Source of the DNA: Candidatus Iainarchaeum sp.
GTDB taxonomy: Archaea; Iainarchaeota; Iainarchaeia; Iainarchaeales; UBA10191
DNA length: 64,000 nucleotides
Assembly (NCBI GenBank): GCA_030649735.1
Contig: JAUSFL010000044.1
Span: 14,038-78,037, forward strand
Direction: 5' to 3'
How positions within the stretch are numbered: the stretch's first letter is position 1; each line of letters starts with the position of its first letter. Below, one piece after another: positions 13,047-50,387 of the stretch. The translations under genes were made by a program, and so were the position numbers. Under the pieces are notes generated by a model. It was not told the origin of the DNA. It saw only the letters and a program-made list of their open reading frames with translations, and searched no databases.

Positions 13047-13112
13047 AAACCCCTAATCAAACAGGCAAAACAAATATAATAATGTTTTTTTGCAAAAAAA
13101 CAGGCTGGGGAT

Positions 13113-13388: not shown

Positions 13389-13401
13389 GGGGCGGTTTTG
13401 A

Positions 13402-31631: not shown

Positions 31632-31643
31632 TTAGGCACTACA
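31632..31643 (+). repeat. Dispersed element copy supplying the (minus-strand) TAG stop of ORF 31639-32826
   Basis: AAAGTTAGGCACTACAAA; the minus-strand stop is the reverse complement of CTA at 31639-31641. Confidence 0.8.
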
Positions 31644-32826
31644 AATTTGAAATTTTAACTACTCCCCATTCAAGAATTTCTCGCGAATCATAATATAGTG
31701 GTTTCCTACCATAATAAATCCAACCAGTTATTTTGTAAATGTGGTTTTTTGGAAGCCGCAGTTTTTCAAGTATTCTATCTGCGCTCAATCCAGTACTTCG
31801 TAATTGAATAGTTTTTTCATAAGTTTCCCATTCTTTCTTTAATCCACTGGAGTTTTTTAGAAATGTTTCAACTGCCTTAACAAATTTGGCTTGCTTTTTC
31901 TCCGCATATTTGAAAGGAATTTCCTGAAATAATTTGACAATATTTGGGCTTCGTCCATCAATATAGAATGAGATTTTCTGTGAAAGAGTTCCATCCTTTC
32001 TTAATGTCCTATTTTTCTCTCCAGCAATTGGTGAAGAAGTAACTCCAAACTCAGCCAACAAGGATTTTACTTGTTCATGAAATTTTATTAGCTCATTTAC
32101 CTTTGACTCAACTTTATGCAATCCAAAAGTTGCAGAAGTAAATGCATTCTTTGCTCTAATAAAAGGGCATTGCAACTCGTTGCCAAAAAGAACACTCAGA
32201 AAAGCGCGTTTTATCTCCTTATCAGAATTCATTACCCAATCAGGAACTTTTGTTGAAGAAGAAACTTTATCCCCAACAGGAGCGCCCGCCAAGAATAATA
32301 ATCTTGCAAGCGGAGAACTATTAACATTTAAACGATAATCACCCCCTTTTGGATAAGTTCGATATAGTACCCTATTTTTTATTTTTCTTATTTCTGACTC
32401 CGAAGAATTAATTGCCAAATGCGGTTCGATTTTGTATTGCTTGAACAATAATGATGCAATCAACTCCAAGTCTTCTTTCTCGCCAAAAAGGGAAAAGGCG
32501 CCCAAATGTTTCATTAAATGGCCATCACCAAATAGAAATGCAGATAGCTCTGTAAAAAGAAGAAAACTTTGAGTATCTTCTACTTTTAATGGAATCAATC
32601 TAATTGACTTAAGATAATTCAAGGCTCTAATTGGAAAAGGCACTCTTTTGTCAGATAACCAACTGTATATTGTCCTTTCAGGATGCTTTATCAAGCGCGA
32701 TATTTCAGAAATAGTCTTTATTGAATTTTGCAATTCTTTAGCTTGAATATACTTTTCTGCCAGGTTTAATTGCCGGTCTCCAAAAGAAGCAAGAAATTTA
32801 TTCTCATCAACAATTATTTCTTCCAT
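31639..32826 (-). CDS. Free-standing LAGLIDADG-like (double-motif) homing-endonuclease-like protein with N-terminal HTH
   Basis: LSAFLFGDGHL and a second degenerate KRAFLSVLFGNEL motif ~130 aa later; N-terminal HTH-like segment. The stop codon lies inside a dispersed element copy. Confidence 0.4.
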   Translation of the reverse strand: MEEIIVDENKFLASFGDRQLNLAEKYIQAKELQNSIKTISEISRLIKHPERTIYSWLSDKRVPFPIRALNYLKSIRLIPLKVEDTQSFLLFTELSAFLFGDGHLMKHLGAFSLFGEKEDLELIASLLFKQYKIEPHLAINSSESEIRKIKNRVLYRTYPKGGDYRLNVNSSPLARLLFLAGAPVGDKVSSSTKVPDWVMNSDKEIKRAFLSVLFGNELQCPFIRAKNAFTSATFGLHKVESKVNELIKFHEQVKSLLAEFGVTSSPIAGEKNRTLRKDGTLSQKISFYIDGRSPNIVKLFQEIPFKYAEKKQAKFVKAVETFLKNSSGLKKEWETYEKTIQLRSTGLSADRILEKLRLPKNHIYKITGWIYYGRKPLYYDSREILEWGVVKISNL

Positions 32827-34106: not shown

Positions 34107-35192
34107 TCATGAATTCCTGACATACTCCAACGACAAAATGCCGTTAAGTTTTGGGGTTTCTGGATTCCTAATATTTTCCCCTTTAGGCGTATCAGTGCTA
34201 CCCTTCAGCACATCTCTGTCTGTGCTGAATCGAGATATGCCTTGGCGATACAAACTTGCAATATTGAATCCTGCGTTTGCATCGGCATTCTCAACCACCC
34301 CACATTTCGTGCAGTGGAATTCTTTTAGTTTTCTGTTCCTTGCTTCTATATGACCGCACTTACTACACCTTTGCGAAGTATATTGCGGTTCAACATAGGC
34401 AACAGGCACTCCGAACTTTTTGGATTTGTATTCTATCATTTTTTGCAACTGATAAAAACTCCAAGAGTTTATGGAATACCTCTGCTTTCTTCTCATTTTT
34501 GTAGTCTTTCGAATATCTTTCAATTCTTCAAGTACTATAATTGCTTTGCTATTTTGTGCTTCATCAATCAATTTCTTGCTTATCTGGTGATTAATATTCC
34601 TAATGATTCTGCTCTCTCTATCTTTGATTTTCTTAACAAGAGAATGCTTGCCATTCTTTTGAAGTGACCGTCTTATGTTTTTATATTTTGTGTGAATATG
34701 ATTGCACTTCTTACCTAGCTTAAGCACTTTTCCAGTATCAATATTTGAAGCTACAAGGACATGCTTAATTGTATTTCTATCCACACCAATCACTTGCTTT
34801 GGTTTGTATTGACAAGGTTCTTCGTATGAATATGACACATAAGCAAAAGTCTCCCCAATTTCAACTTGGTTTATCTTCTTAAATGAAATATTAAAGCGAA
34901 TTGGAAGTGTTAATTTCAGACAAGGTATTATTATCTCTTTTTTTGTGAATCTAATTCCTTGAGAAGGAACAGTCAGTTTTACTGAATTTACAGTTTTGAT
35001 TGTTTTATTTTTGGCATACTTTCGGAGGATTTGGTTGGCAATCACTGATTTCAAGCCAATATGTTTTACATCTTTGCTTGATAATGTTCTCTCTCTTATT
35101 GCATACTCAGCTATTTTCTTTGCCAAGCTAAGTTCTCTGCTAAAGTTCTGATAATGCTTTATTTTGAGAGTCAATATCAAAAAAGACCACAA
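34107..35192 (-). CDS. tnpB: TnpB (IS200/IS605 OrfB-family), solitary
   Basis: RuvC-I IGVDRN, E in IVLEELK, zinc finger CSKCGH...CTKCG. Only 21 nt separate its stop from the convergent ldcA stop. Confidence 0.85.
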   Translation of the reverse strand: MWSFLILTLKIKHYQNFSRELSLAKKIAEYAIRERTLSSKDVKHIGLKSVIANQILRKYAKNKTIKTVNSVKLTVPSQGIRFTKKEIIIPCLKLTLPIRFNISFKKINQVEIGETFAYVSYSYEEPCQYKPKQVIGVDRNTIKHVLVASNIDTGKVLKLGKKCNHIHTKYKNIRRSLQKNGKHSLVKKIKDRESRIIRNINHQISKKLIDEAQNSKAIIVLEELKDIRKTTKMRRKQRYSINSWSFYQLQKMIEYKSKKFGVPVAYVEPQYTSQRCSKCGHIEARNRKLKEFHCTKCGVVENADANAGFNIASLYRQGISRFSTDRDVLKGSTDTPKGENIRNPETPKLNGILSLEYVRNS

Positions 35193-36660: not shown

Positions 36661-37063
36661 ATGAGATTCAGATTCTACAAAAGCCCGGATTTTAAGGAAT
36701 TAATTGCCTTATTGAAAATCAATGGCTCTTTTGACAAGGCGACTGACAGCAAAAGGATTTTCAGTAAATTAATCAGGCAAAACCCAAAGTCAATAATCCT
36801 TGCTGTTGAAGGAAAGCAAAATTGCAGGGTATGTTTTTGCAATTTTCACCCCGTTTGAGTCTTACATTCATCATTTGGGAGTTGCTCCGACATTCCAGAG
36901 CAAGGGACTTGGAACAATGCTTTTGAAGTTTGCTGAAAAAACCTTGAAACAGGAAGGCGCCAAAAGAATCAACTTGTTCTGCAGCAAGGACAAGATTGAA
37001 TATTATAAGGACCGTGGCTGGGTTTTTTTGGAAAACGCGGCTTGCTTTGAAAAATACCCTTGA
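36661..37063 (+). pseudogene. GNAT acetyltransferase interrupted by a 1-nt frameshift near 36815-36825
   Basis: ORFs 36661-36858 and 36800-37063 together form one GNAT (…ILAVEGK / KIAGYVFAIF…HHLGVAPTFQSKGLGTMLL). Removing the c in AAGCAAAATT restores VEGKKIAGYV. Confidence 0.55.
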
Positions 37064-37116: not shown

Positions 37117-37189
37117 AGCCCCGTAGTATAGTGGCCAAGTATGCCGGGCTTTGAACCCGTTGACGGGAGTCCGAATCTCCCCGGGGCTA
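37117..37189 (+). tRNA. tRNA-Gln (anticodon UUG)
   Basis: Acceptor AGCCCCG/CGGGGCT, anticodon loop CTTTGAA, T arm GGGAG-TCCGAAT-CTCCC, discriminator A, no encoded CCA. Confidence 0.8.
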
Positions 37190-37253
37190 TTAGCCAAAAG
37201 TTAGTAGCCTCTTTCCTCGTTTCTTTTAAAGTCCGAGGAAGGAGGTTATTAAC

Positions 37254-38525
37254 ATGGAAGAAAACGTTTTCGACCCGCATGGTTTGACCAAGCGAATGGA
37301 AGCAGAATTACGAAAGATTTCCTTGCTTCCAGAACCCAATAAATCTCTAATTCTGGATTTTTTGCACAATTACAGGTACAAAAAGAAGTCTTTGAGCTTG
37401 GCCAGGCGTTGTCGTTTGGCAAGCCAGTTTCACTTTTTTGCCAAGCTTTCAGGAAAGCCTTTGAATCCTTTTAGAGAACAGGATGCTCGAAGCTTGGTTG
37501 GCTTGATTGAAAGGTATGAGAATTCTCGAAAGCCTTATTCTTTGCATACTTGGAAAGAAATCGTAAAGAATGTTAAGATTTGGGTTAAATGGGTTAATCC
37601 TGAAGACTACCCTAACGTTTTGTTGAAGTGTAAAGATGTTTTAACAGTCCAAAACCCTTACTCAGACCCTAAAAGAAAAGCCAGTCTTGAGGATTTCTTG
37701 ATTACTGACGAAACCTTCCTGAAGCTTTTGAATGTAGCCAAAGACCAACAAAAAGCCATTCTAGCCATTGGATTTGGCTGCGGTTCAAGAACTGGAGAGC
37801 TCTTGGGTTTGCGTAGAAAAGACTTGAAATTCAATCCTGACGGAACAATATCGCTTTCTTTTCTTGAAAGCAAAACTTTTCCCCGAGAAAATATTTTATT
37901 AAGTCCAGACTTATCCTGTTACGTGCGAGAATGATTTGAAAAAAGCCCGTTGAAAAGCCAGAATGACTTCTTTTTCTGCACTGTCAACGGCCCGCCAAAA
38001 CCACTATCTCAAAACGCTCTTGGAATAATCCTAAAACGCCTGGCTGTCAAAGCCGGCTTAGGAAAATGGAAGAAAGTCAAGTCAAGCAATGGCATTTGGT
38101 ATTCTCACTATCAAGGCCAAAGAATCTATTTCACTAAATTCCGGCGTTCTGCAGCAACTTGGGCTTTAAAAAACTTGAAAAGCCACGCCTTAGCTGGCAA
38201 AAGAATCTGGGGTAACGAAGCTTCAAGCATGATTAAAATTTACTCTGGATTAGTTTCTGAAGACGCTAACGAAGCTTACAGGGAAGCTTTAGGTTTAGCA
38301 CAACCAACTCAAGTCGAAAACATTCTGAAGCCTAAAACCTGCTTCAAATGCCATACAATGCTTTCTCCAACTCAAAGCCTTTGCCCAAACTGTAAAATAG
38401 AAACAGACACTTCAAAATTAATAGATACTCAATTACTGAAAGAAGCAGAAATGACAGCCTTAAGGGAAGAAATGAAAATGCTCCAAACAGCACTAGCGCA
38501 AATAACCCTAAAAATGCAAAGTTAG
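37254..38525 (+). pseudogene. int: Tyrosine recombinase/integrase interrupted by one in-frame TGA (37932-37934); N- and C-parts in the same frame
   Basis: Core-binding N-domain; catalytic box GCGSRTGELLGLRRKDL (Arg) upstream of the stop; KFRRSAATW and KIYSG (Tyr) downstream. Junction reads YVRE*FEKSPLKSQ; the stop is a single transition from TGG (Trp). Strong SD AGGAGGT 8 nt upstream. Confidence 0.75.
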
Positions 38526-38532
38526 GCACTAC
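38522..38532 (+). repeat. Dispersed element copy (11/12) supplying the TAG stop of the integrase
   Basis: CAAAGTTAGGCACTACG; the stop codon is at 38523-38525. Confidence 0.7.
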
Positions 38533-38785
38533 GCCGGAACTAAAAAAGCAATAAAAAAGCTTCAAAAGCTAAGAAAAACAGTAAAAATAATGATTGCGCC
38601 AATCAAAGCAAAATAATGTTACAAAAAAAGGAATACGAGCTGAAAGAAACAACCTATTGGTTGAAAGGAGGGAAAATCCAGCTAAAAATTTCCCCCGAAT
38701 AAAAGATTATTCTTAGAGTGTGGATCCAAATCAATAAGCTCGCTCATTAAATCTTCAATTTTTTTGACAATCATTTTCAAGATTA

Positions 38786-39691
38786 TTATTGATTCCATTT
38801 CCTTTGCGTTTCTATTTTAGCGTGTAGTTTAAACTTTTTTCTGAATTGATTAATTTTTTCTTGAAAATCTTTTGGGTAGGTCTTAGATTTCTCGTTGAAT
38901 AAAAATTTTAAATATCCTACTTTTTGTGGATTTACTCCTATTAATTGGGCCAGTGTAAAGTCACACATGAATGGGTTATCGGATGCTAGCGCCCAATTGC
39001 AATTTATTTTGGTTCCAAACAGCGGTCCATTCCCCTCCATGCCTAGATAGCCATCAATTATTGAATAATTTGGATACGCTTTCTTGATTAAACTGGCCAA
39101 ATTATAATGAATTAATTTAATACTTTGCAAGTATTCTTTTCCTTTTAAGGTGTGTTTTCTCAAGCCATGAATTTTCACTCGATCTTCTGGTTTGATTAAT
39201 GGCATTACAAAGTTTTTGGTTGAACTTGTCATAATAGCGTAATCATGTGACTTTGGAACTGTCATTGATATCAAAATATCATAATCTAGAAAAGTCCGAT
39301 TAATTCTAACTTTATCCCACCCATAAATGGTTTTAACTGGGTGGGAGAAATATTCTGAGTCCAAATTTAGATCAACAAAAGATGCTCCGTGTTTTTGAAT
39401 GATGTCCCAAACGCCAAATTTTTTGAGTGTTGATTTGGTAGTAAGCCCTTGTTGCCAGGACTCGCCGCTTCCTTCAGCCACTGTAATTTTAGATGGGTGG
39501 TGTTCTGTTAAGATTTGTAAAACAGTGTCTAGCGATTCTGCAGAGGTATCTGCTAGTTGGGTATTGCAAGAAGTAAAATTTGGTTTTATAAAAATAGATT
39601 TATCCCGTATTTTGTCGTCTGAGAATAGTTTTGGAACTATTGAACGTATGTTTTCAACTCTGTTTTTGCCGCCAGTCAACAAAATTTTCAT
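38786..39691 (-). CDS. DUF362-family protein
   Basis: IFIKPNF... and overall DUF362-like pattern; first gene of a minus-strand pair with the kinase. Confidence 0.45.
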   Translation of the reverse strand: MKILLTGGKNRVENIRSIVPKLFSDDKIRDKSIFIKPNFTSCNTQLADTSAESLDTVLQILTEHHPSKITVAEGSGESWQQGLTTKSTLKKFGVWDIIQKHGASFVDLNLDSEYFSHPVKTIYGWDKVRINRTFLDYDILISMTVPKSHDYAIMTSSTKNFVMPLIKPEDRVKIHGLRKHTLKGKEYLQSIKLIHYNLASLIKKAYPNYSIIDGYLGMEGNGPLFGTKINCNWALASDNPFMCDFTLAQLIGVNPQKVGYLKFLFNEKSKTYPKDFQEKINQFRKKFKLHAKIETQRKWNQ

Positions 39692-40371
39692 GCATTCACT
39701 TTAATTAATTTTGGGTGGTTATAATTTGCATTGTTTATAACTAAATTGGCTGCTTTTTTTGGGTGGTTTTTTCTAAGGTACCATTGTTGGGCTGGTTTGT
39801 GCCAATGGTTCCACCGAAATATTACTTCTTTTCTGGAAATTTTTCTCACAATTGGCTCTCTTTTAAGTTGCCGTTCAAACGAGCATGAAAATGGAATGTC
39901 TAAAAAAATTCTGAACGCCGGTATCTTGCTAAATTCCTTTTTTGATAGAAAAACGCCCTCAACGATTAAAATTGATTCTTTTTTGACTTGTATTTTTTCC
40001 TTTTTTTTCTTGGTTTTATTGTTAAATATTAAGGATTCTTTTTCTAGTTTGCCTTTCTGAATGAATGTTGTTAGAATTTTTTTTATGGTTATAAAATCAA
40101 ACCATTGGCTATAATATGCTTTCCAGGAAGATTTTCCGTTTCTGATTCTCTTGGTTTCGGTTTTCAAAAAGTCATCCACCCGTAATTGGGTGGATTTTAT
40201 CGCCTTGCTGTAAAGGCTTTTTTTTAGATTGCGGGCAAAGTATGTTTTTCCGGATGCGTCTATTCCGTCCACAAAAATAATGGTTTTCCCACTCTTCAAA
40301 AATGAGTTTACTACCATTGTCATTATTGAATCTGTTTTCCTATTTGGCCAATTCTGTTGGGGCATAGACAT
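39688..40371 (-). CDS. P-loop nucleoside/nucleotide kinase-like protein
   Basis: Walker A VDGIDASGKTYFARNL, ~200 aa. True start probably a few codons downstream of 40371. Confidence 0.5.
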   Translation of the reverse strand: MSMPQQNWPNRKTDSIMTMVVNSFLKSGKTIIFVDGIDASGKTYFARNLKKSLYSKAIKSTQLRVDDFLKTETKRIRNGKSSWKAYYSQWFDFITIKKILTTFIQKGKLEKESLIFNNKTKKKKEKIQVKKESILIVEGVFLSKKEFSKIPAFRIFLDIPFSCSFERQLKREPIVRKISRKEVIFRWNHWHKPAQQWYLRKNHPKKAANLVINNANYNHPKLIKVNA

Positions 40372-40405
40372 TTAAAGAATATAATCATTAATAAAAGCTT
40401 CCGAA

Positions 40406-41749
40406 TTGAATGATTCTATGCAAAAAAGATTGACGGAGAAAATCATACAAGTTGTTCTGAAAGATTTGATTCATCAGCCCACCAATAGTAAAAGCCGCGC
40501 TGAATTGATTTTAGACTGCTTGTTTGAAGGAAGAAAGGGGATTAGCTGGGATTTTCGTTGCGATTTGTATTTCTTTTTTCTGAAAACGATTGTTACTAAA
40601 ATGATGAAAGAGAACCGGGAGCTCATTGATACTGTGAAAAAAGGTTACTGCGATTATTCTATTTTTAAAAAAGCGCTTAACAAGGCCCTCAAACTTTATC
40701 TTACCAGTATTGTGGAATATGGAATCACAACTCCCCAAAAATTTAGCTTTCCATTCCTTGTGGAATTTGAACTCACTAATAAGTGCAATTTGGCGTGTAA
40801 ACATTGTTATGCAAATGCTGGTAAAGAGCTGGCTGATGAAATTAATACTCAAGAAGCAAAAGAAATCCTTAACCAGCTAAACAATATAGGTGTTCCAATA
40901 GTCTGTTTCACTGGCGGAGAGCCCTTTCTAAGGGCAGACTTCTTTGAATTACTTGAACACTCTAATAAAATAGGCCTCTTGACTGTTATAACTAGTAATG
41001 GAACCTTGATTACAAAGGAAAGTGCAGCCAGACTCAAAGAATTGCAAGTGGAATATATTAGAATCAGCTTGGACAGTGCAACCCCTAAAACGCACGATTG
41101 GCTAAGGGGAATGCCAGGAGCCTACGAGCAAACCATTCAAGGAATAAAAAATTCTATCCAAGCTGGAATCAAAACCGGAGTCACTACAGTTTTGATTCAA
41201 GAAAACTCGTCAGAAATGGAACAAATGATAGAACTTTTGAGCCAATTAGGGTGTTCAGATTTTACTGTGTGCAGGTTGTTTCCATTAGGTAAAGGAAGTT
41301 CGTTGCAAAATAGTTTGCTTAACAAAGAAGAATTGAGTAAAGTGGAATCTCGCATTTCGGCAAAAGCAAAAGAGCACCCTAATCTTTTGATGAATCCTTT
41401 GACGCTGGAAGGCAGAATCCATTCAAAAAAAGACATGCTACGGAAAATAACAGACATGATTGGAGGCTGCCCTGCCGGATTAAACGTATGCGCCATTACT
41501 CCTAAAGGGGAAATAAAGCCTTGCGCGCTAATGTCTATAACCGCGGGGGATTTTAAAAAACAAAAGTTTGAAGAAGTCTGGAAAAACAGTCGGTTATTTA
41601 ATGAACTTCGGGATCGCTCGCTGCTTAAAGGAAAATGTTCCGCTTGCGAATTCAAATTTTCGTGCGGTGGTTGTCGTGCAACCGCATATGGTTATACTGG
41701 AGATTACCTTGAGACAGACCCCATCACATGCATGTTACGTATAAAATGA
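40406..41749 (+). CDS. Radical SAM enzyme with C-terminal SPASM domain and ~115-aa N-terminal extension
   Basis: CNLACKHC (CxxxCxxC) and a SPASM Cys cluster (CPAG...C...CSACEFKFSCGGCRA). Confidence 0.8.
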   Translation: MNDSMQKRLTEKIIQVVLKDLIHQPTNSKSRAELILDCLFEGRKGISWDFRCDLYFFFLKTIVTKMMKENRELIDTVKKGYCDYSIFKKALNKALKLYLTSIVEYGITTPQKFSFPFLVEFELTNKCNLACKHCYANAGKELADEINTQEAKEILNQLNNIGVPIVCFTGGEPFLRADFFELLEHSNKIGLLTVITSNGTLITKESAARLKELQVEYIRISLDSATPKTHDWLRGMPGAYEQTIQGIKNSIQAGIKTGVTTVLIQENSSEMEQMIELLSQLGCSDFTVCRLFPLGKGSSLQNSLLNKEELSKVESRISAKAKEHPNLLMNPLTLEGRIHSKKDMLRKITDMIGGCPAGLNVCAITPKGEIKPCALMSITAGDFKKQKFEEVWKNSRLFNELRDRSLLKGKCSACEFKFSCGGCRATAYGYTGDYLETDPITCMLRIK

Positions 41750-41770
41750 CTCCGCTAATGGGATGATAAT

Positions 41771-43123
41771 GTGAAAAGAATACAGAACCTGATTGGAAGC
41801 GCTATAATCAAATCCGCGTTATTTGATTTGTCCAAACCAATAGGGGTTTTAAAGAAAAGCCGTGCTGAACTCATTTTAGACAGACTCTTTGAAGAAAAAA
41901 AAGAGATTGATTGGGACATTAAATGCCGAATTTATTTTTTTCTCTTGAATCAAATAATGGCTAAAATGATTAAAGAAAATAAGATCACGATGCAAACTGC
42001 AAAGAAGTTTTTTCAGGATTACCCTATTTTTAGAAGAATACTCAATAAAACGCTTAAACTATTTCTTCAGAGCATAACTGAATACGGGATTACTATGCCG
42101 CAAAAACTTAGTGCGCCATTATTGGTAGAATTTGAGTTGACTAATAAATGTAATCTTGCATGCAAACACTGTTATGCAAATTCTGGAAGCAAATTTGCAA
42201 AAGAACTGGATTTAAGAGAAGTAAAAGAAATCCTGAACCAAATCAACCAAGCCGGCGTTCCTTTAGTGTGCTTTACTGGCGGCGAACCACTTCTAAGGCC
42301 GGACTTCTTTGACATTTTGAGCCATGCTAAGCGCATTGGTCTTGTTACTATTGTTACAACCAATGGGACTCTAATCACAAAAGAAAAGGCCAGAAAGTTC
42401 AAAGAGCTTGGAACAGATTATATCCGCATTAGTTTGGATGGGGCAAGTATAAAAACACATGATTGGCTGCGTGGAATTCCTGGCGCGTATAAAAGAACCG
42501 TTCAAGGAATCAGAAATTCCATTGAAGCAGGAAACAAAACCGGAATAGGCACAGTTCTAATTCAAGAAAACGTGCATGAACTTGAAAACTTGATTGATCT
42601 GGCAGCTCAATTAGGTTGCACTGACATAAACGCAATTCCGCTCATTGAAAGCGGTCGGGCAAAAAGCACTTTGAATAAAGAGATTCATGAAATGAGCAAT
42701 GAACAAAAAAAGAAAAACGAAGAGTTGATAGTTGCAAAAGCCAAAGAATATGAGGGAAAAATGCTGCTTAATTTTTTGGATTTAGATCATATTCGCAGGG
42801 TAAAAGGTTCATCAAAGCATTTTGTTGGTTGGGCTCAAGGTGGTTGCGCTGCAGGGCGAACAGTTTGTGTCATAAACCCCAATGGAGAAATTCGGCCATG
42901 TATCACTCTTAGATTGAATGTCGGAAGCCTGCAAAAACAAAAGTTTGTAAAGATTTGGAAAAATTCCAAAATAATGGAAGAACTTAAAAACCGTTCTCTT
43001 GTAAAAGGAAGTTGCGGCAAATGTGAATCCAAGTATACTTGTGGGGGATGCCGCGCTGCAGCTTATGATAAATTTGGGGATTATCTTGAATCAGACCCTG
43101 GTTGCTATGTGCGATACTTTTGA
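41771..43123 (+). CDS. Radical SAM/SPASM enzyme, paralog of 40406-41749
   Basis: Same architecture (CNLACKHC; C-terminal CGKCESKYTCGGCRA); recognisably similar along its length. Confidence 0.8.
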   Translation: MKRIQNLIGSAIIKSALFDLSKPIGVLKKSRAELILDRLFEEKKEIDWDIKCRIYFFLLNQIMAKMIKENKITMQTAKKFFQDYPIFRRILNKTLKLFLQSITEYGITMPQKLSAPLLVEFELTNKCNLACKHCYANSGSKFAKELDLREVKEILNQINQAGVPLVCFTGGEPLLRPDFFDILSHAKRIGLVTIVTTNGTLITKEKARKFKELGTDYIRISLDGASIKTHDWLRGIPGAYKRTVQGIRNSIEAGNKTGIGTVLIQENVHELENLIDLAAQLGCTDINAIPLIESGRAKSTLNKEIHEMSNEQKKKNEELIVAKAKEYEGKMLLNFLDLDHIRRVKGSSKHFVGWAQGGCAAGRTVCVINPNGEIRPCITLRLNVGSLQKQKFVKIWKNSKIMEELKNRSLVKGSCGKCESKYTCGGCRAAAYDKFGDYLESDPGCYVRYF

Positions 43124-43145
43124 GATTGGGAAAAAGCGTGATTGA

Positions 43146-44360
43146 ATGGAATTATATATTGAAAGAGCAAAAGGAGTTTGGCTATACGGCCAGAATAATG
43201 AAAAGTATTTGGACGCGTGTGCTGGGACGTTTAACATAATTCTTGGGCATGGGGAAGAACGAGTAATGGACGCCGTCCAAGAACAATTGGGTAAAATGGT
43301 TCAATATTCTTCTTCTTGGAAAAGCCATTTAGTTGAAGATTTCTCAGCAAACCTTTTGTCAATATCTCCAAAAAATTTGGACTCCTGTTTTTGTAAAGTT
43401 ACTGGGGGAAGTACTGCAAACGAAGTGGCCATTAGAATGTTGGCAAAAAATTTAAATAGAAAAAAAGTGATCTTGATGGAAGGCAGCCATCATGGGAATA
43501 CAATTTTTCTTTCAAACAATCAATCTGTTTTGAATGAAAATAATAAAATCTTTGTGAAAATGCCTAAACTTTCCTTTCCATCCATGTCTAGCATGAATGA
43601 TTCGGCATGGGCAAAATCCGCTGCTGATTTGGACTTTTTATTTAAAAAACACTCAAAAGAAGCGGCTTGTTTCATAATTGAACCAATTCAAGGCCGAGGT
43701 GGAAATCTTGTACCCCCAAAGTCATTTTTTAAAACGGTTTCAGAATCAGCTTCAAGGTATAGTATACCCATAATTGCCGATGAAGTGCAAGTGGGTGTTG
43801 GCCGAACTGGAAAGTTTTTTGGAAGTGAAGCTGTTGGCTTGTTACAACCAGATGTAATTGTCTTGGCCAAAGGAATCACTGGGTGTGGTTTTCCTTTAGG
43901 CGTAATTTTATATGACTCAACGTATGGAAAATTGGAATCAGCAAAAGACGGTTTTACTTTTGGATCCAATCTAGTTTCAGTTGCGGCAGCCAAAAAAACA
44001 GTGGAAATAGTGAGCGATCCAAAGTTTTTGCAGGAAATCCAATTTAAAGGAGAATATTTGCGAGCCAAGCTTGAAAAGCTGCAACTTGAGCACAATTCTT
44101 TGGAAGATATTCGCGGCATTGGGTTGTTTTTTGGCATAAAACTGAAGTCTGGAAAAGAATTTCCAAGCACTGAACGCATGATTGCAGTTCTTGCTAAAAA
44201 TGGGGTAATCTGCCGGTCAAGCGAAAACGTTCTTAAAATTAGACCGCCCCTTGTAATAACTTTGGAACAAATTGATTTTTTATGTAAATCATTGGAGGTG
44301 GCTCTGAATGAAACAGAAAGAAAAACTAAATTGGCAAATGGAATTCTTGCGCATGGGTAA
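43146..44360 (+). CDS. Class-III (omega) PLP-dependent aminotransferase
   Basis: IADEVQVGVGRTGKFFG, PLP-Lys region VLAKGITGCGFPLG, ~400 aa. Confidence 0.8.
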   Translation: MELYIERAKGVWLYGQNNEKYLDACAGTFNIILGHGEERVMDAVQEQLGKMVQYSSSWKSHLVEDFSANLLSISPKNLDSCFCKVTGGSTANEVAIRMLAKNLNRKKVILMEGSHHGNTIFLSNNQSVLNENNKIFVKMPKLSFPSMSSMNDSAWAKSAADLDFLFKKHSKEAACFIIEPIQGRGGNLVPPKSFFKTVSESASRYSIPIIADEVQVGVGRTGKFFGSEAVGLLQPDVIVLAKGITGCGFPLGVILYDSTYGKLESAKDGFTFGSNLVSVAAAKKTVEIVSDPKFLQEIQFKGEYLRAKLEKLQLEHNSLEDIRGIGLFFGIKLKSGKEFPSTERMIAVLAKNGVICRSSENVLKIRPPLVITLEQIDFLCKSLEVALNETERKTKLANGILAHG

Positions 44361-45297
44361 ACTCCTTCGAAAAGAAATCACTTCATTGAAACAGTTTAAC
44401 GAACGGCAAAAAATTTCTGGAATTAGCAAATCAGGAGATCCCCAATTTAAAGTGGATAATATTGCTGAAAACTTTCTTTTAAAACAAATAAAAAAGATTT
44501 CCAAAAAAACAAGCATTGCTTATTTTTCAGAAGATAAAGGCCTTGTTCGTTTTGCAAAAAACCCAGAGTATTTGCTGATTTGCGACCCAATTGATGGATC
44601 AAGACCGTTCTCAGCTGGTTTTGAGTCAAATAACTTTTCGATTGCACTTGCAGAAACAAATGGTAAAGACCCCACGGATTTAACATTTGCTCAAATAGTC
44701 TCGGGTTTTTTATTGGAACTGAAAACCGGAGAATATCTTTTTGCGGAAAAAGGAAAAGGAGTTATTCAAAACGGAGCTAAATTTCAACCTAAACCCACTC
44801 GTTTTAATAGCAATAACTTGAACCAATTGTTTTGGAGTTTTGAATTCAATGGAACCCCCTCAAGAATTGTTCATGAAATACTGGGTGATTTGATTGATAC
44901 TTCAGCAAATAAGGGGGGCATTTTTGTTTTCAATTCTGGAAGTTATTCAATTTCAAGAGTGATTACTGGCCAACTTCACGCATATATTGACATTGGAAAT
45001 TTGGTTTTGAAGAAATTTCCCGAACTTGAAAAAGAATTCAAATCTGTAGGTTCGGGATCAATTCTGCACTTGTTCCCGTATGACATTGCAGCCTCCTACA
45101 TTATTGCAAAAGAAGCGCACATAAGCATTGCAGATGCTGCAGGAAATTCATTGGAATCTCTTTCCCTAACAGATTTATCTGCACAAAATCAAACTTCTTG
45201 CGTATGCGCGCTGAATGAAAAGCTATCCAAGAAACTAATTAACGAGATTTCTGTAAACCTAGAAAAAAAACGAAAACAAATCGCTGAAGAACAGTGA
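44308..45297 (+). CDS. Inositol-monophosphatase-family (IMPase/FBPase-like) phosphatase
   Basis: LICDPIDGSRPF (DPIDGT-type motif). Start probably 44338 or 44353. The 3' end overlaps the convergent gene by 59 bp. Confidence 0.7.
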   Translation: MKQKEKLNWQMEFLRMGKLLRKEITSLKQFNERQKISGISKSGDPQFKVDNIAENFLLKQIKKISKKTSIAYFSEDKGLVRFAKNPEYLLICDPIDGSRPFSAGFESNNFSIALAETNGKDPTDLTFAQIVSGFLLELKTGEYLFAEKGKGVIQNGAKFQPKPTRFNSNNLNQLFWSFEFNGTPSRIVHEILGDLIDTSANKGGIFVFNSGSYSISRVITGQLHAYIDIGNLVLKKFPELEKEFKSVGSGSILHLFPYDIAASYIIAKEAHISIADAAGNSLESLSLTDLSAQNQTSCVCALNEKLSKKLINEISVNLEKKRKQIAEEQ

Positions 45298-45874
45298 ATA
45301 AAGCAGCTATTGCGAGTAGAAGCAACACAACGCCAGCCATTTGGCTATCGAATAACAGCAAGATAAAAATTAGAACGAATAACATGCATCTTTCTCCTCT
45401 TTGAATTAACCCATGCATATTGTCAAGTTGTTTTCGCCAGTTAGGGTTGCTGTATGATGCATGCGACTTGGCAAAACTGGTTAAAAAAACACCCAAAATG
45501 CAAGTAAAAATTATATAATTCCAAGAGATAAAAAAACCAAAAAGGTTGACAGAATTCAAATTTAAACTCCACAATCCAACTAACAAAAGAAAGTCAACCA
45601 GGATATCAGATAACCCATCAAAATAATCGCCAAAAGGAGTTTGTTTTTTCAAATATTTGGCTATACTCCCATCAAAAATGTCAAACAGAAAAGAAAGCGA
45701 AAAAAGAATACCTCCTAAAAGAATTTGCTTCTCAACTAAGCTTAGAAAACCGCTAAACCCAAGCACAACTGCCAGTAAAGTCCATTGATTAGGGGATAAA
45801 GGCACGATCGAAAGCATTCTCCCAACAGATTGTTCTAACTCAACCAATTGCTTATCAAATAACCCTTTAATCAT
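45239..45874 (-). CDS. CDP-alcohol phosphatidyltransferase
   Basis: DGSIAKYLKKQTPFGDYFDGLSD matches D-G-x2-A-R/K-x8-G-x3-D-x3-D; multiple TM helices. Confidence 0.8.
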   Translation of the reverse strand: MIKGLFDKQLVELEQSVGRMLSIVPLSPNQWTLLAVVLGFSGFLSLVEKQILLGGILFSLSFLFDIFDGSIAKYLKKQTPFGDYFDGLSDILVDFLLLVGLWSLNLNSVNLFGFFISWNYIIFTCILGVFLTSFAKSHASYSNPNWRKQLDNMHGLIQRGERCMLFVLIFILLLFDSQMAGVVLLLLAIAALFTVLQRFVFVFFLGLQKSR

Positions 45875-46622
45875 TTGTAATGCCGCCCAAAAACAAAATA
45901 AATTCTGGAATTTTAGTAATCTTTGGAAATAGTTGCCCTGTCTTTTGTTGGTATATTACATATTCTTTCCCAAATCTTTGAATCAAATCTTTCTCCTCAA
46001 TTGAAATCCACATCAAAGCAGTTAAGCACACTGCTAAAAACGATAATAAACCAAATAAGCTCGGACTAATAATGAAAAGTCCAAAACAAACCACGACTGC
46101 TATTCCCAAAAAGGGATGGCGAATAAACCGAAAAACCGAGTTCTGCTTCAATTTAAAACTAGAAGGAAAAAATGAGCCCATAACATATATTTCTTCAACA
46201 GAAAAGACTTTTACTGCCTTCTTCCAAATTAACAATGCAATCAAGAATAAGATAAAACCCGCAACGAAATTCACTGGGTGAATTTGTTTTATATTTCCAG
46301 CAAAAAAAGGAATTAGTAAAGCAGAATACCACAAACACATTCCAAAAAAGAAAAAAGGCAGTGCATGACGATAATTTAGTCTTTGATCGCCCGTCTTTTT
46401 TGAAAAACCATGCGCTTTCTTCCAGAGCAAAAAACTAAGCGCGCAATAAACTAACGATTGTAAAAACGGTATAAAATCAAATTTTATAATCGCGTTTGGT
46501 ACAAATGCAAATAGAAAAGCAAAAATAAAAAGCGCAAACAACAAAAAGTAATATCTTGGAGGAGAAATCTCCGGAACTAAATCAAATAAACGCAATTTTT
46601 CCTCACGAATATTCACGGGCAA
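45867..46622 (-). CDS. ICMT/PEMT-family membrane methyltransferase (isoprenylcysteine carboxyl / phospholipid methyltransferase-like)
   Basis: RFIRHPFLGIA...IEEKDLIQRFGKEYVIYQQKTGQLFP signature; polytopic. Confidence 0.65.
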   Translation of the reverse strand: MPVNIREEKLRLFDLVPEISPPRYYFLLFALFIFAFLFAFVPNAIIKFDFIPFLQSLVYCALSFLLWKKAHGFSKKTGDQRLNYRHALPFFFFGMCLWYSALLIPFFAGNIKQIHPVNFVAGFILFLIALLIWKKAVKVFSVEEIYVMGSFFPSSFKLKQNSVFRFIRHPFLGIAVVVCFGLFIISPSLFGLLSFLAVCLTALMWISIEEKDLIQRFGKEYVIYQQKTGQLFPKITKIPEFILFLGGITND

Positions 46623-47614
46623 ATAACCACCTTTACCGCAGTTGATTCTCGTGCAAACCTTCTTGATGCAAAATCATATCCAAGAACTTCAAAAGCTTCC
46701 CGATAATCTTTCAAACCAAACTTGTGAGTAATAATGTCTTTGCCCCTAATTCTTGGCAGTAACTTGATCGCTTGTTTAAATGTACCAGAGTCCATATTGA
46801 CTCCAAGAATATCCACGTTCTTTTGAGCAATCAAAAAAGGTTCAATCTTCTCAACATGCCCTGGACTCATTCCAAATAACACTAACTTGCCAGCAGGCTT
46901 GACCAAGCGAACCCCCAGCTCAAACGCTTGCCCAGAAGAATCAATCACAAAATTAAAACCATTCGATTCATCCCCCTGGCAAATTGTTATCCCAAACTTT
47001 TGAGCAAAAGCACACCTAAACTCGGACTTTTCAACGCCAAAAACTTTTATTCCCCTCAATCTAAAGAGTTCAGCCCAAATCAACCCAGTAGGACCAAGAC
47101 CAATAATACACGCTGTTTGATTCTTTTTGATGTTAAGCCGATTAAAACCATTCAATATACACGCCAATGGCTCAACCAAAGTAGCTTCTTCAAAGCTAAT
47201 ATTATCAGACAACTTATACACATTACTTTCTCTGATTTTCACAAAAGCAGCAAATGCCCCGTTGATATTAACACCCAACTCACCATTTCCGCCAGTACCT
47301 AAATTTTTACACAAATTCTGCTTTCCATCAAGACAAAACTCACAATTCCCGCAAGTTAGTGTTGGATCAGCAACTACCATATCCCCAATTTTAAATCGCC
47401 TTGCTTTATTCCCTGTTGAAGTAATTACGCCGGAAAATTCATGACCCAGAACAATATTATCTAAACAACCCATAATCCCTGAAACAATCTTTAAATCAGA
47501 CCCGCAAATTCCGCAACAATTAACCCTAATCAGAACCTCATCTGGTAAAACGGCTGGCATGGGAAATTGGCTCACTTCCAGACTACTCTTTTTAGACAAA
47601 CACAATGCATCCAT
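46613..47614 (-). CDS. Zinc-dependent medium-chain alcohol/polyol dehydrogenase
   Basis: GHEFSGVI, Cys-rich structural-zinc loop (CGNCEFC), Rossmann IGLGPTGL. Start taken at MDALCL; the ORF track extends to 47668. Confidence 0.82.
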   Translation of the reverse strand: MDALCLSKKSSLEVSQFPMPAVLPDEVLIRVNCCGICGSDLKIVSGIMGCLDNIVLGHEFSGVITSTGNKARRFKIGDMVVADPTLTCGNCEFCLDGKQNLCKNLGTGGNGELGVNINGAFAAFVKIRESNVYKLSDNISFEEATLVEPLACILNGFNRLNIKKNQTACIIGLGPTGLIWAELFRLRGIKVFGVEKSEFRCAFAQKFGITICQGDESNGFNFVIDSSGQAFELGVRLVKPAGKLVLFGMSPGHVEKIEPFLIAQKNVDILGVNMDSGTFKQAIKLLPRIRGKDIITHKFGLKDYREAFEVLGYDFASRRFARESTAVKVVICP

Positions 47615-48033
47615 AAACATGGAAATAAGGTTGTTACTGAATAAAAAAATAGCACATTCTAATGCCAAAATTAGTGTATAATGATTTGATAATTATTATA
47701 GTGGGTCTTTTAGATATCTTCTTTCAAAATAATCAATTAATTGTAAATTACAAGTTTAGAACTATGATTACATTTGTTTATGATAAAAAATTGTTAAAAC
47801 ATCAACTGAAAATCCAAAATATGATTAATTAAGTCTGGATTGAACTTCGAATTTCTTGTATATTCTATGGGTTTTTAAGTGTAGGAATTGCCTTGCTTTT
47901 AGCTGATTTCTAGTAATCCTTGTTGTTTTTTCTATTAATTAGACTAGATTAGCTTTATTCTTGGCAAAAAGAAATAATTAAGCTTATTTGCTGGTTTTAG
48001 TTTTTGCAGTTTCTTTTTTTCTGGGTTATTTTT

Positions 48034-48044
48034 TGTAGTGCCTA
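48034..48044 (-). repeat. Dispersed element copy (11/12, reverse) in the repeat-dense non-coding block
   Basis: TTTTGTAGTGCCTAT. Confidence 0.65.
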
Positions 48045-48198
48045 TGTCTCTATTTTTGCTTTTGTTTTCGGGACATTTACAAGACATTTTTTGGGTTTGC
48101 GGGACAATTAATTGGCAATTTTATAGTTGATTTTTTTGATTCGTATTTTTTTTGCCGACATTTTCCCGACATTTTTTCACTTTTCCCGACACCCATTT

Positions 48199-48210
48199 TG
48201 TAGTGCCTAA
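48199..48210 (-). repeat. Dispersed element copy (exact, reverse) in the repeat-dense non-coding block
   Basis: TTTTGTAGTGCCTAA. Confidence 0.8.
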
Positions 48211-48296
48211 TGCTGCTTTCAATTTTCCTATTTTCTGCTTAGTGCCATTTTTGTGCCATTTTTTTACTTTGCGTGTCATTCAAAGCTTGCATCTTC

Positions 48297-48307
48297 TGTA
48301 GTGCCTA
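48297..48307 (-). repeat. Dispersed element copy (11/12, reverse) in the repeat-dense non-coding block
   Basis: CTGTAGTGCCTAT. Confidence 0.65.
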
Positions 48308-48482
48308 TGCTCCGCTTTATTCACTTGCTTGCCAGTAACTGAGTTAACTCATGCTTAAATAATTCAATGTAGAAGGTATGTCTAGAGAGTTTTCAAAACT
48401 GCTTTATAAAAGCAGAAGTAAGGACTTCTCATGAGAAACCCGACAACGACAATAAGAAGGCCGGAACAGAAATTAATGCAAG

Positions 48483-48671
48483 GTGAAGAAATTGGAACTA
48501 CAGCAAACTCTTACAGTTAGGAAGAATGAGCAAATGACGGCAAAGCAAGTGGCCTTGTTGCTGGCGAGAAAGACAGATTTTGAGTTAAAGCGAGAGTTTC
48601 CGGTTTTTTGGGAATTGCTTGCAATAAAAAGCAAAAGTTGGAAAAGTGTTGATGATGAGTTTGAATATTGA
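48483..48671 (+). CDS. Small hypothetical protein
   Basis: 62-aa ORF at the edge of the repeat block. Confidence 0.3.
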   Translation: MKKLELQQTLTVRKNEQMTAKQVALLLARKTDFELKREFPVFWELLAIKSKSWKSVDDEFEY

Positions 48672-48882
48672 GTTGAGAATACCAAAGCAAGTAGTGCCTA
48701 ACTGTTTTCTCTGCCTCTCAAACAAAAGAAAACGCAAAAAAATGGTGTTCCGTACAACCCAAAGAAGATGGGTTTGCAAAGAATGCCTTGACGCGCTTGG
48801 AGAAAACCAAATACAACAAATGCTTGAAAAAATTCCTTTGGCTGAAGATATAATATTCAGAAAGCCAAGCATCAATTTTTAG
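48646..48882 (+). CDS. Small zinc-ribbon protein
   Basis: CFLC...CKEC. Confidence 0.35.
   Translation: MLMMSLNIELRIPKQVVPNCFLCLSNKRKRKKMVFRTTQRRWVCKECLDALGENQIQQMLEKIPLAEDIIFRKPSINF
48691..48701 (-). repeat. Dispersed element copy (11/12, reverse) between small ORFs of the element
   Basis: AAGTAGTGCCTAACTG. Confidence 0.65.
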
Positions 48883-48890
48883 TGATTGCT

Positions 48891-49241
48891 TCAGACGCAG
48901 ATTATTTTTACTGTTTTTAAGTCTATTAGCGGGGTTCTTTTTTCTGTTTCGTTGATGATTTCGAACATTTTTTCAACGTTTTCTGGAACGTTTGCTTCAT
49001 TGATGTCTTTTTTTGAAGTGTTTTTTCTTGTTAGGTATTCTTGTGCGAAAGAGCGGGATATTGACTTGACTTTTTTGAAGTCTATGGTTATTTGTTTCTC
49101 TTTCATTTTCTCTAAATCATCAAAGAAGTTGCTGACTAGGTCTCTTAAAGCAAGGTTTTCGGAAATTATTTTTGCAATTTCTATCTTACTTGATAAAGTC
49201 ATAAATGTCCACTTCTTTTGCCGGATAGGGTATTCTGACAC
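48891..49241 (-). CDS. STAS-like (DUF4325-like) small protein, partner of the upstream GHKL ATPase
   Basis: ITIDFKKVKSISRSFAQEY pattern, 116 aa; overlaps the ATPase 3' end. Confidence 0.4.
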   Translation of the reverse strand: MSEYPIRQKKWTFMTLSSKIEIAKIISENLALRDLVSNFFDDLEKMKEKQITIDFKKVKSISRSFAQEYLTRKNTSKKDINEANVPENVEKMFEIINETEKRTPLIDLKTVKIICV

Positions 49242-49995
49242 TTATTAGGGTGCCTTGTAACCTATAATTGTCTCGGAGTTTATATAATTTTGTTGGTTCA
49301 TTGCCTTTAAAGTAGGCTGCCCCATTTCCTGACACAATAAGCAGCTCTCCCGAAAGGCCTTTTGTGAAAAGCTTTAAGTTTGAGCCTAAGCCAAAACCAC
49401 GCTCTTTCCCTTTGGTTGAAAGGCCATTAATTGCCTGGATTATGCTTTCAGCGTCCTCAAAAACCATTCCTTTTTTTGCAAAACTACCGGGAATTGTTAT
49501 TCCGTCATCAAAAAAGCATATTTCAACAAATCCTTTCTTTTCATACTTTTGGGCCATTACAAAAGCATTCTTGAATTCTGAATGCTGATAAATGTTATCA
49601 ACAAGCTCGTTTATCAAATATTTGAAAGCATTTTCCCCACCATACTCTTTGCCATTATTGTGCAGTTTGAAAATCTGTTCTAGAAACTTTTCTGAATCCT
49701 TTTCTGCAACTTTTGGCGGCAGGCCTATTATTGGAATGTAAGTTTTTAATCCATTCTCAACCTTAAACTCACCAATAACCAAAGAAATATAGTTTGCGGC
49801 ATTCTGATTTGCTGGGGGAACATACTTGATTTTCTTGCTGTTTTCCTTAATGAACACGCCTAAAGGAAGCAAGGTTGTGGGATAAAGCCAGCTAACAGTT
49901 TGCAAATTAAGAACTTTTGTTTCAATGCTGGAATTCTTAAAATTACAGAAAATAAGGTAATTGTTCAATTGATTAGGAAACTCCAACTCAGCCAT
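49186..49995 (-). CDS. GHKL-superfamily ATPase (histidine-kinase-like ATP-binding domain) with N-terminal unknown region
   Basis: N box ELVDNIYQHS, G1 DDGITIP, G2 GFGLGSNL. Confidence 0.6.
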   Translation of the reverse strand: MAELEFPNQLNNYLIFCNFKNSSIETKVLNLQTVSWLYPTTLLPLGVFIKENSKKIKYVPPANQNAANYISLVIGEFKVENGLKTYIPIIGLPPKVAEKDSEKFLEQIFKLHNNGKEYGGENAFKYLINELVDNIYQHSEFKNAFVMAQKYEKKGFVEICFFDDGITIPGSFAKKGMVFEDAESIIQAINGLSTKGKERGFGLGSNLKLFTKGLSGELLIVSGNGAAYFKGNEPTKLYKLRDNYRLQGTLISVRIPYPAKEVDIYDFIK

Positions 49996-50232
49996 AAAGC
50001 AATTATCGCTAAAAAGAGAATAAAAACCTAAGCAGGCGAGAATTCCACTGGAAAAAAGCGCCAGAAACGTTTTACGCAGAAAAAATTATTAACAACTTAC
50101 TACTTCTATGTCAACTACTAAAGGATAAATAAAAGAAGCGAGTTTTAAGCATTGAGGGAATTCTTACTTTTGACCTTTATTCTCCCCGGGGCTATTAAGA
50201 CCTGGGGCTTTTTTGAACAGCAGTTCAAAATT

Positions 50233-50246
50233 GCCCCTGGGGCTAT
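50233..50246 (+). repeat. Degenerate second att-like copy (CCCCTGGGGCTATT) 40 bp beyond attR
   Basis: Resembles CCCCGGGGCTATT with one T inserted; CCTGGGGCT also at 50200. Confidence 0.4.
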
Positions 50247-50387
50247 TTTTTCTTTTTTGCCTAGTTTTCCAACTATTGCACTATTTTTTGTTAGCCTTTT
50301 CCCTAACATTAACGTTTTCTTTTAAAACTGCTGCGACTGCTTTTACTAATGCATGTGTTTTGATTTCGTGCTTAAATTTTTCAAGAG

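Follow-up and report, generated by a model that had tools for sequence, protein, structure and literature searches.

A tRNA-Gln(UUG)-associated genomic island of Candidatus Iainarchaeum that is very probably an integrated mobile element

We analysed a 64,000-nt stretch of contig JAUSFL010000044.1 from Candidatus Iainarchaeum sp. (assembly GCA_030649735.1, contig positions 14,038–78,037), referred to here as the window; coordinates are those of the window unless a locus is named. Positions 37176–50197 very probably represent an integrated mobile element, now a genomic island, which belongs to a family of elements of Ca. Diapherotrites/Iainarchaeota archaea. The signatures of such an island are found together at this site: a repeat of a tRNA 3' end, an adjacent tyrosine integrase gene, a shift in base composition, and cargo unrelated to the flanks. 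An earlier examination made without database searches (the sequence-only reading) had proposed that an element of ~13 kb was integrated in tRNA-Gln(UUG), and the repeat, the integrase, the composition, the cargo and the relatives all agree with this proposal. The island is most likely a fixed remnant, and it is probably immobile because it has no replication or transfer genes and because its integrase gene carries an in-frame TGA. Its present contribution is a cluster of nine enzyme genes together with a phage-associated HATPase/DUF4325 pair.

Attachment repeats and boundaries of the island

The tRNA-Gln(UUG) gene at 37117–37189 on the + strand is intronless and does not encode the CCA end (ARAGORN, 37116/7–37189/90; Rfam RF00005, 59.2 bits). 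A 17-nt direct repeat, TCTCCCCGGGGCTATTA, occurs on the + strand as an exact match at 37176–37192 (the attL core) and again as an exact copy at 50181–50197 (the attR core), with 13,005 bp separating the starts of the two copies. The repeat is made up of the final 14 nt of tRNA-Gln and TTA, and its tRNA part comprises the 3' strand of the T stem, the 3' strand of the acceptor stem and the discriminator A. The sequence-only reading had recognised the recurrence of this 17-mer, with coordinates that were off by one and with a division into 13 and 4 nt instead of 14 and 3. The sequences around the two sites are unrelated beyond the 17 nt. When both strands of the window were searched with up to three mismatches, only these two copies were found, compared to 0.04 expected, and the 17-mer is therefore not one that recurs at many unrelated sites.

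In addition, the element differs from its surroundings in composition. The GC content of 37193–50180 is 36.4%, whereas those of the left and right flanks are 40.8% and 42.2%, respectively, and none of 100 windows of 13 kb outside the element falls below 39.9%. The GC content at third codon positions (GC3) is 0.29–0.37 for the cargo genes, as compared to 0.414 ± 0.045 for 28 long open reading frames (ORFs) outside the element. The AT-richness of the cargo, which had previously been judged by eye, is thus borne out by the composition and codon profiles.

The right boundary was located by comparison with a related genome. A scan of the JGI metagenomes with the 3' half of the tRNA gene yielded two loci, L031 and L032, both of which are occupied by a different insert. 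In L032, the GNAT, DJ-1, OGG and GatE genes are 71–77% identical to those of the left flank of the window, and the exons of tRNA-Gln are identical. The tRNA gene is followed by a different insert of 2.2 kb, which encodes a Fic protein and a 288-residue protein and no integrase, and then by a stretch that is 77% identical to 50076–50195 of the window. The homology stops at ...CCCCGGGGCTAT, which is the core, and past the core L032 continues with a methyltransferase gene and not with SIMPL. The presence in two species of different cargo at the same tRNA, with homologous right arms, provides strong indirect evidence for site-specific insertion and sets the right boundary of the island at the first core copy (50181–50197). 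The right arm of the element (50076–50180, + strand), whose 77% identity to L032/L031 ends at the core, is partly kept in other family members.

Relatives of the window in GTDB genomes that were found through SIMPL (55–62% amino acid identity) are too distant for this comparison and are not syntenic, and one has a tRNA-Pro upstream. In a Ca. Iainarchaeum metagenome-assembled genome (MAG; L003), tRNA-Pro(UGG) at 9556–9630 lies ~200 nt upstream of a SIMPL homologue; a tRNA beside SIMPL thus recurs, with a different identity. In the Logan assembly of run SRR13727527, the island stands alone on a contig of 13,085 nt (window 37135–50219), and the next contig starts at 50222. These contig breaks, which are near the att cores, misfit a simple k = 31 model of branching between occupied and empty sites and were not used as evidence. 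The right break falls within the palindrome TTGAACAGCAGTTCAA.

Two further att-like copies are found to the right of attR on the + strand. Copy 2, CCTGGGGCT, is at 50201–50209 and is followed by TTTTTT, and copy 3, CCCCTGGGGCTATT, is at 50234–50247 and is followed by TTTTCTTTTTT; the gaps between successive core copies are 3 nt and 24 nt. When up to one error is allowed, CCCCTGGGGCTATT is the sole further match in the window to the 13-mer core (0.05 expected). CCTGGGGCT is one of seven one-error matches in the window to the 9-mer, and it is the weaker evidence for that reason, even though it starts as little as 4 nt past attR. Both copies had been listed in the sequence-only reading, again one nucleotide away from their positions. 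Both share a T in place of the core C. The same T sets the tRNA 3' end of L027, one of the loci of related integrases described below (...CTCTCTGGGGCTA, read as Gln(CUG)), apart from tRNA-Gln(UUG) of the window, whereas tRNA-Gln(CUG) of L024, another of these loci, has C at that position.

T-runs lie directly 3' of both extra copies. In archaea, native tRNA genes have a T-run directly after the gene, and copy 3 resembles the 3' end of a tRNA gene together with an oligo-T terminator. The extra copies may be relics, either of earlier att sites or of the displaced original tRNA end with its terminator; this interpretation stays an inference because the 3- and 24-nt gaps keep no trace of older elements. 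Repeated or tandem integration, as had been suggested from these copies, is plausible in view of the three att cores that are arranged in tandem at 9886, 12224 and 18795 of L027, although the T-runs fit a displaced or native tRNA end equally well.

The integrase gene, its upstream hairpin and related loci

The tyrosine integrase gene (37254–38525, + strand) was identified by translation, Pfam PF00589 and alignment. Its ATG at 37254 is 64 nt past the end of the tRNA, and a single frame runs through to 38525 with an in-frame TGA at 37932–37934. The sequence-only reading had correctly placed the gene beside the tRNA, at a spacing of 62 bp that is not borne out, and the TGA had escaped notice. The TGA is codon 227, 678 nt into the ORF (...CYVRE-stop-FEKSP...). 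The integrase read through this codon matches PF00589 with 33.2 bits (cut-off 27.1), and neither half matches alone.

A search of 5.8 billion proteins gave nine relatives of the integrase, with homologues carrying precomputed PF00589 assignments. In all six relatives that are at least 44% identical to the window integrase, Trp occupies the TGA position (YVREWYEKSP), and the window stop is therefore a TGG-to-TGA change; the three most distant relatives have Phe (P0006), Leu (P0007) and Glu (P0009) there. The same TGA is present in the independent Logan assembly of SRR13727527; in the comparison of this assembly with the window over 37663–50219, a single base difference was noted, at 37431. The uninterrupted ORF that an active enzyme needs is thus absent. 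The simplest reading of the TGA is a recent nonsense mutation, recent because the closest relative, P0001 (84% identical), keeps TGG; the loss of all mobility functions from the island agrees with it.

The catalytic residues R179, K207, R297, W319 and Y330 are present in the window integrase and conserved in the alignments, with His replacing W319 in P0004. In the window integrase Thr294 takes the place of the first His of the HxxR box, most relatives likewise have Thr, and P0009 alone has His (PHAWRH); this position, His-II, is variable within the tyrosine recombinase superfamily. The C-terminal part carries a CxxC...CxxC zinc ribbon (C363, C366, C377 and C380) and a coiled coil. For P0001, a structure model with a predicted local distance difference test score (pLDDT) of 78.5 and a predicted template modelling score (pTM) of 0.70 was compared with known structures by Foldseek, and it matched Cre (1.3e-7), XerA (4.6e-6) and Brujita Int (5e-4), with SSV1 Int as a marginal fold match (E = 1.8). 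Judged on this model, the window integrase is predicted to have the two-domain Cre/Xer fold. The nearest solved protein by sequence is Pyrococcus XerA. A scan of 1.84 billion representatives gave 74 proteins at E <= 1e-30, and the integrase family is modest in size. Elsewhere in the window, tblastn weakly links 13083–13403 to the integrase family (E = 0.008), and the host XerA-type recombinase may be encoded there.

Nearly all of the spacer between the tRNA and int is occupied by a conserved hairpin (37200–37253, + strand) with a 20-bp stem formed by the arms 37200–37219 and 37234–37253, whose RNA folding energy (dG) is -29.8 kcal/mol (z = -7.9). A hairpin had been noticed here from the sequence; it is real and longer than was described. 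The loop (37220–37233), TTTCTTTTAAAGTC, holds TTTCTTTTAAA (T-tract and TATA-like), and the 3' arm, which includes GGAGG, stops 1 nt short of the int ATG. A stem of 18–21 pairs is kept at the same place in L024, L025 and L027 with compensatory changes: in the four loci, position -4 is AT, TA, CG and AT, position -9 is CG, TA, GC and GT, and positions -15, -17 and -19 covary likewise. The stem is shorter in L028, and no significant stem is found in L026. A search with a 17-mer of the hairpin gave seven matches, all due to chance and none with an integrase.

Each stem contains 3–4 G.U pairs, and therefore a role at the RNA level is favoured, in which the T-tract of the loop and the stem would stop or insulate read-through from the tRNA and would mask the ribosome-binding site and start codon of int. 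In the second of the two readings, at the DNA level, TTTTAAA, 24–30 nt before the ATG, would serve as TATA box for an int mRNA that lacks a leader, with the arms as an operator. Scans for bacterial promoters and terminators were uninformative, the host being an archaeon.

Relatives of the window integrase with 45–84% identity are found in Ca. Diapherotrites/Iainarchaeum MAGs, and in three of five loci (L024, L025 and L027) int directly follows tRNA-Gln, 60–70 nt past its end. In L024 (P0001, 84%), int starts 64 nt past the tRNA, which ARAGORN, when introns are allowed, identifies as tRNA-Gln(CUG) with a 17-nt intron. In L025 (P0003, 66%), int follows an intron-bearing tRNA whose exons resemble those of the window tRNA-Gln; this tRNA may be read as UUG under canonical 37/38 splicing, and ARAGORN places its 106-nt intron differently. 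Behind int, L025 carries genes for SLFN/AlbA, a type IV secretion system pilin, TrbL, a TraC-like protein, a VirB4/TraG-like ATPase, a histone and TrmB, and the element part has a GC content of 46.3%, as compared to 56.5% for the host flank. In L027 (P0005), int is frameshifted and 3'-truncated. L026 (P0004, 45%) has no recognisable tRNA.

L028 (P0008; Logan SRR26113682_2384) is 9,867 bp long and is circular, because its first 30 nt recur at the contig end. It has no tRNA, and sequence resembling the right arm runs without interruption into the core CTCTCCGGGGCTA, the hairpin and int, as is expected of an attP. L028 probably represents a DPANN archaeal plasmid or virus. It also encodes a second Xer-like recombinase fragment, which runs across the contig ends, a 444-residue protein with an MTBMA_p00010 domain and a 953-residue protein.

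Two small ORFs of the island link it further to these loci. The ORF at 48483–48671 (+ strand, 45–62 residues) has a tblastn homologue in L025 (55% over 40 residues), next to a zinc-ribbon ORF, and the CxxC..CxxC zinc-ribbon ORF at 48646–48882 (+ strand) has homologues near int in L027 (63%), L025 (52%) and L026 (28%). Both ORFs belong to the backbone of the element family.

With regard to the tRNA genes themselves, the window tRNA-Gln(UUG) has no intron, whereas the genes in L031/L032 have introns of ~76–85 nt between identical exons and that in L025 one of ~106 nt; the CUG isoacceptors in L024 (1025–1115) and L027 (9806–9897) have introns of 17–19 nt. The tRNA genes span 2895–3044 in L032 and 9720–9900 in L025. 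At default settings, ARAGORN either overlooks these intron-bearing tRNAs or wrongly assigns them to Ser or Ile, and three of the four go undetected by Rfam.

Taken with the loci above, the order of events that we infer is as follows. A Cre/XerA-like tyrosine recombinase, whose gene lies at the left end of the element, would have recombined the attP of the element with the host tRNA-Gln(UUG) gene at its 3' end. This attP would have consisted of the right arm, the core (the last 14 nt of tRNA-Gln and TTA) and the hairpin with the int promoter region. Strand exchange inside the 17-nt core would have left the tRNA intact at attL, with its 3' end supplied by the element, and would have duplicated the core at attR. 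The hairpin would then control int.

Cargo genes and alternative explanations

The cargo begins with nine genes. The first encodes a DUF362 protein (38786–39691, - strand; Pfam PF04015, 5.9e-31), which is conserved in L033, a locus from another genome. It is followed by a PRK/uridine-kinase-like P-loop kinase (39688–40371, - strand; Pfam PF00485, with an NCBIfam kinase match below cut-off), and by two radical SAM/SPASM enzymes on the + strand, of which enzyme 1 (40406–41749) is NirJ2/AhbD-like below cut-off and identical to NCBI MDO8648012.1, and enzyme 2 (41771–43123), identified by profile matches, is a paralogue 54% identical to it. A class III aminotransferase (43146–44360, + strand; Pfam PF00202, 8.7e-77) and an inositol-monophosphatase/FBPase-like protein (44308–45297, + strand; Pfam PF00459, NCBIfam below cut-off) come next. 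On the - strand are a CDP-alcohol phosphatidyltransferase (45239–45874; Pfam and NCBIfam matches), in whose translation the DxxDGxxAKx8GxxxDxxxD motif is complete, a PEMT/ICMT-like membrane methyltransferase (45867–46622; Pfam PF04191) and, as the last gene of the cluster, a Zn-dependent dehydrogenase (46613–47668; profile matches), which resembles threonine and scyllo-inosose dehydrogenases below cut-off. No cargo protein reaches a curated NCBIfam cut-off, and therefore these proteins are relatives of the respective families and not members; the phosphatidyltransferase, for example, matches archaetidylinositol-phosphate synthase best, with 92 bits against a cut-off of 180. The cluster may, tentatively, act on a CDP-activated lipid, making or modifying a head group of the inositol- or aminocyclitol-phosphate type. 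A literature search found nothing on this nine-gene cluster.

To the right of the cluster, 47669–48482 has a GC content of 31%, and in its gene-poor part (47833–48482), where the Logan gene calls show no gene, are the repeats CGACATTTT and GTGCCATTTTT and three copies of GTAGTGCCTA. Beyond the two small backbone ORFs follow genes for a DUF4325 (STAS-like) protein (48891–49241, - strand; Pfam PF14213; phrog_20761, 1e-10) and its partner, a GHKL/HATPase_c-like protein (49186–49995, - strand; phrog_3364, 9.5e-42; weak Pfam HATPase_c). PADLOC gave no credible defence assignment for this pair. No replication or conjugation genes are found among the ORFs of the island, and no VirB4/TraG-type ATPase, pilin or mating-pore genes among those of the window, whereas such genes are present in L025.

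The 10-mer GTAGTGCCTA, often found as GTAGTGCCTAAC, occurs 13 times in the window against 0.78 expected, on both strands and inside and outside the island (5478, 8700, 29049, 29257, 29941, 31190, 31633, 35609, 38523, 48035, 48200, 48298 and 48691). It is frequent at gene starts and ends; the TAG stop of int lies within one copy or overlaps with it, as does the stop codon of a 395-residue ORF at 31639 with another, and LGTT is encoded by the two copies that fall inside GatE and OGG. As it is enriched across the whole window, it was rejected as an iteron of the element.

Several observations weigh against the interpretation as an inserted and now fixed element with a lipid-modifying cargo. For the attB of this insertion the predicted junction, ...GAGTCCGAATCTCCCCGGGGCTATTA joined to AGACCTGGGGC..., has no match in the JGI metagenomes, and no empty site was found; the predicted attP junction, ...GACCTTTATTCTCCCCGGGGCTATTA joined to GCCAAAAGTTAG..., has none in IMG/VR, and no excised form of this element was found. 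Because the closest available relatives are different species, insertion is deduced from replacement and not from presence and absence. The lipid head-group function, which we hold with low confidence, is drawn from family matches below threshold. The interruptions of int cluster at the same place in the family, so that a dead integrase is not certain. Finally, the whole nine-gene block is found in the same order and orientation, with 50–65% protein identity, in L033 and L034 (JGI Ga0315289_10000821), where it lies beside fibrillarin, is AT-richer than its flanks and has no integrase within 18.5 kb; it could therefore have entered the island secondarily or predate it.

A composite origin is the most probable of the alternatives: a small integrative element, consisting of int, the small ORFs, the HATPase/DUF4325 genes and the arms, would have arrived first, and the nine-gene cluster would have been inserted or recombined into it separately. 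We regard this as possible, if somewhat unlikely. It is consistent with the conservation of the cluster as a block without an integrase in L033 and L034, with the restriction of homology to family members to int and the small ORFs, and with a perfect 18-nt inverted repeat, AAAAACAGTAAAAATAAT (38574–38591 and 48901–48918), that brackets the cluster and the gene-poor stretch. However, neither a transposase nor a second integrase or second att pair is found inside the island, and the inverted repeat is A-rich, with a right arm that lies in coding sequence. A composite origin would, in any case, refine the integration of the island rather than oppose it. As for the inverted repeat in its own right, its right arm encodes the C-terminus of the DUF4325 protein, it may be due to chance in A-rich DNA or be a trace of rearrangement, and an assignment as transposon ends is unsupported on the two grounds just given.

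Less probable, and in our view unlikely, is that the island is still mobile and that the break in int is a trait of the family, overcome by recoding (UGA read as Trp, or a +1 shift in the subclade of L028 and P0139) or by two polypeptides that reassemble across the poorly ordered stretch past helix 217–229; the break would then throttle the supply of integrase while the island stayed mobile. In favour of this, three of six loci carry different lesions within ~12 codons after the conserved Trp, those in L028 and L027 being different one-base frameshifts within ~12 codons of the window stop. P0008 of L028 and P0139, which are 69% identical, both end in ...PRK on long contigs (9.9 kb and circular; 26 kb), and two other N-terminal halves in the representative library, P0138 and P0272, end at profile positions 227–233. 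The split falls after helix 217–229 of the P0001 model and before 230–251, which has almost no regular secondary structure, and UGA, the stop that tRNA-Trp misreads most easily, sits exactly at the Trp codon.

On the other hand, the intact TGG of P0001 makes the window stop recent, no nonsense change is more common than TGG to TGA when AT pressure acts, and the C-terminal half in the window has no convincing start codon or ribosome-binding site, just a TTG. The A6 and C4 runs that adjoin the break site could make it an indel hot spot. The GNAT gene just upstream of the tRNA (36661–37063) is frameshifted too, being split over two frames near an A-run, whereas it is intact (145 residues) in L032; decay or consensus errors therefore occur in this region.

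That the island is an integrated archaeal virus is very improbable: the HATPase and DUF4325 proteins match PHROG families and the integrase matches phrog_1, but no capsid, portal, terminase or other virion or packaging gene is found in Pfam or PHROGs, the integrase profile finds no relatives in IMG/VR, and the island consists mostly of metabolic enzymes. Equally hard to sustain is the absence of any insertion, in which case the genes would be native and the tRNA end would have been duplicated by chance or in connection with a terminator. In its favour, no empty site was found, and GC palindromes with T-runs behind them abound past attR. Against it, so long a repeat is not expected by chance (0.04), the adjacent integrase is from a tRNA-Gln-associated family, the right arm is homologous to that of another island at the same tRNA, and the GC content is below that of every other 13-kb window.

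Outside the island, a 78-nt direct repeat (28997–29074 and 31138–31215, 91% identical), which duplicates part of the 3' region of gatE, brackets ~2.1 kb with a 220-residue ORF and two membrane-protein ORFs, and this stretch may be a second insertion that targets the 3' end of gatE. More broadly, ~6 kb at 29.3–35.3 kb (37.5% GC) stand where L032 has 1.3 kb. The genes in it include those for a TnpB/Cas12f-like IS200/605 protein (34107–35192, - strand), the 395-residue ORF (31639–32826, - strand; 26% GC3), an aspartate decarboxylase and an LD-carboxypeptidase.

Relation to known integrative elements

Mobile elements of DPANN archaea are barely described, and a literature search found no paper on integrative elements of Diapherotrites/Iainarchaeota. 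The locus anchors a small family with a tRNA-Gln target, a recognisable attP architecture, and circular and conjugative-type forms, which offers a handle on gene flow in reduced, often host-dependent cells. If the suggested function of the cargo is true, a movable nine-gene pathway could let a lipid-limited archaeon remodel its membrane head groups. What stands out is the specificity for tRNA-Gln, a hairpin that covaries, a movable set of enzyme genes, and integrase breaks that cluster oddly.

In its layout the island resembles pNOB8-type (type II) archaeal elements, which have an intact integrase beside a tRNA and include cryptic integrated elements and integrative and conjugative elements of Thermococcales, Methanococcales and Thaumarchaeota (She et al., Krupovic et al.). 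As in those elements, one end is occupied by a tyrosine recombinase gene, the att core duplicates the tRNA 3' end and does not fall within the int ORF, direct repeats bound an AT-richer cargo, and the relatives include conjugative-type and plasmid forms. In contrast, the host belongs to Iainarchaeota/Diapherotrites, the cargo is almost wholly metabolic, and a zinc ribbon and coiled coil are found at the C-terminus of the integrase, in which Thr replaces the first catalytic His.

SSV1-type (type I) elements likewise have archaeal tyrosine recombinases that act on tRNA genes, and their int is in two pieces when integrated. However, the attP of SSV lies inside int, so that integration splits the gene, whereas the break in the window is a point mutation (a frameshift in relatives) with no att there. 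The island is not of SSV type because 62 nt separate its att core from the int ATG downstream.

With Cre and XerA, the integrase shares the two-domain fold and the R-K-R-W/H-Y set of residues, with Trp at the fifth position as in Cre. It differs from them in an extra C-terminal part of ~90 residues, the zinc ribbon and coiled coil, and in serving an integrative element and not dimer resolution.

A sublocation scheme for bacterial tRNA-linked genomic islands was reportedly set out by Williams in 2002. As in those islands, integration is at the tRNA 3' end, which the element restores, decay of the integrase leads to fixation, and tandem arrays form at hot-spot tRNAs. Unlike them, the host is an archaeon, the target tRNAs of the relatives have introns, and the tRNA–int spacer is wholly taken up by a conserved 20-bp hairpin.

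Overall, the island in its present state is neither an integrative and conjugative element nor a provirus. The element operates in the manner of classical archaeal and bacterial integrative elements that target tRNA genes, with an int gene that is intact in the family and adjoins attL and with a core that is not part of the ORF, and its mechanism of integration is a textbook one.

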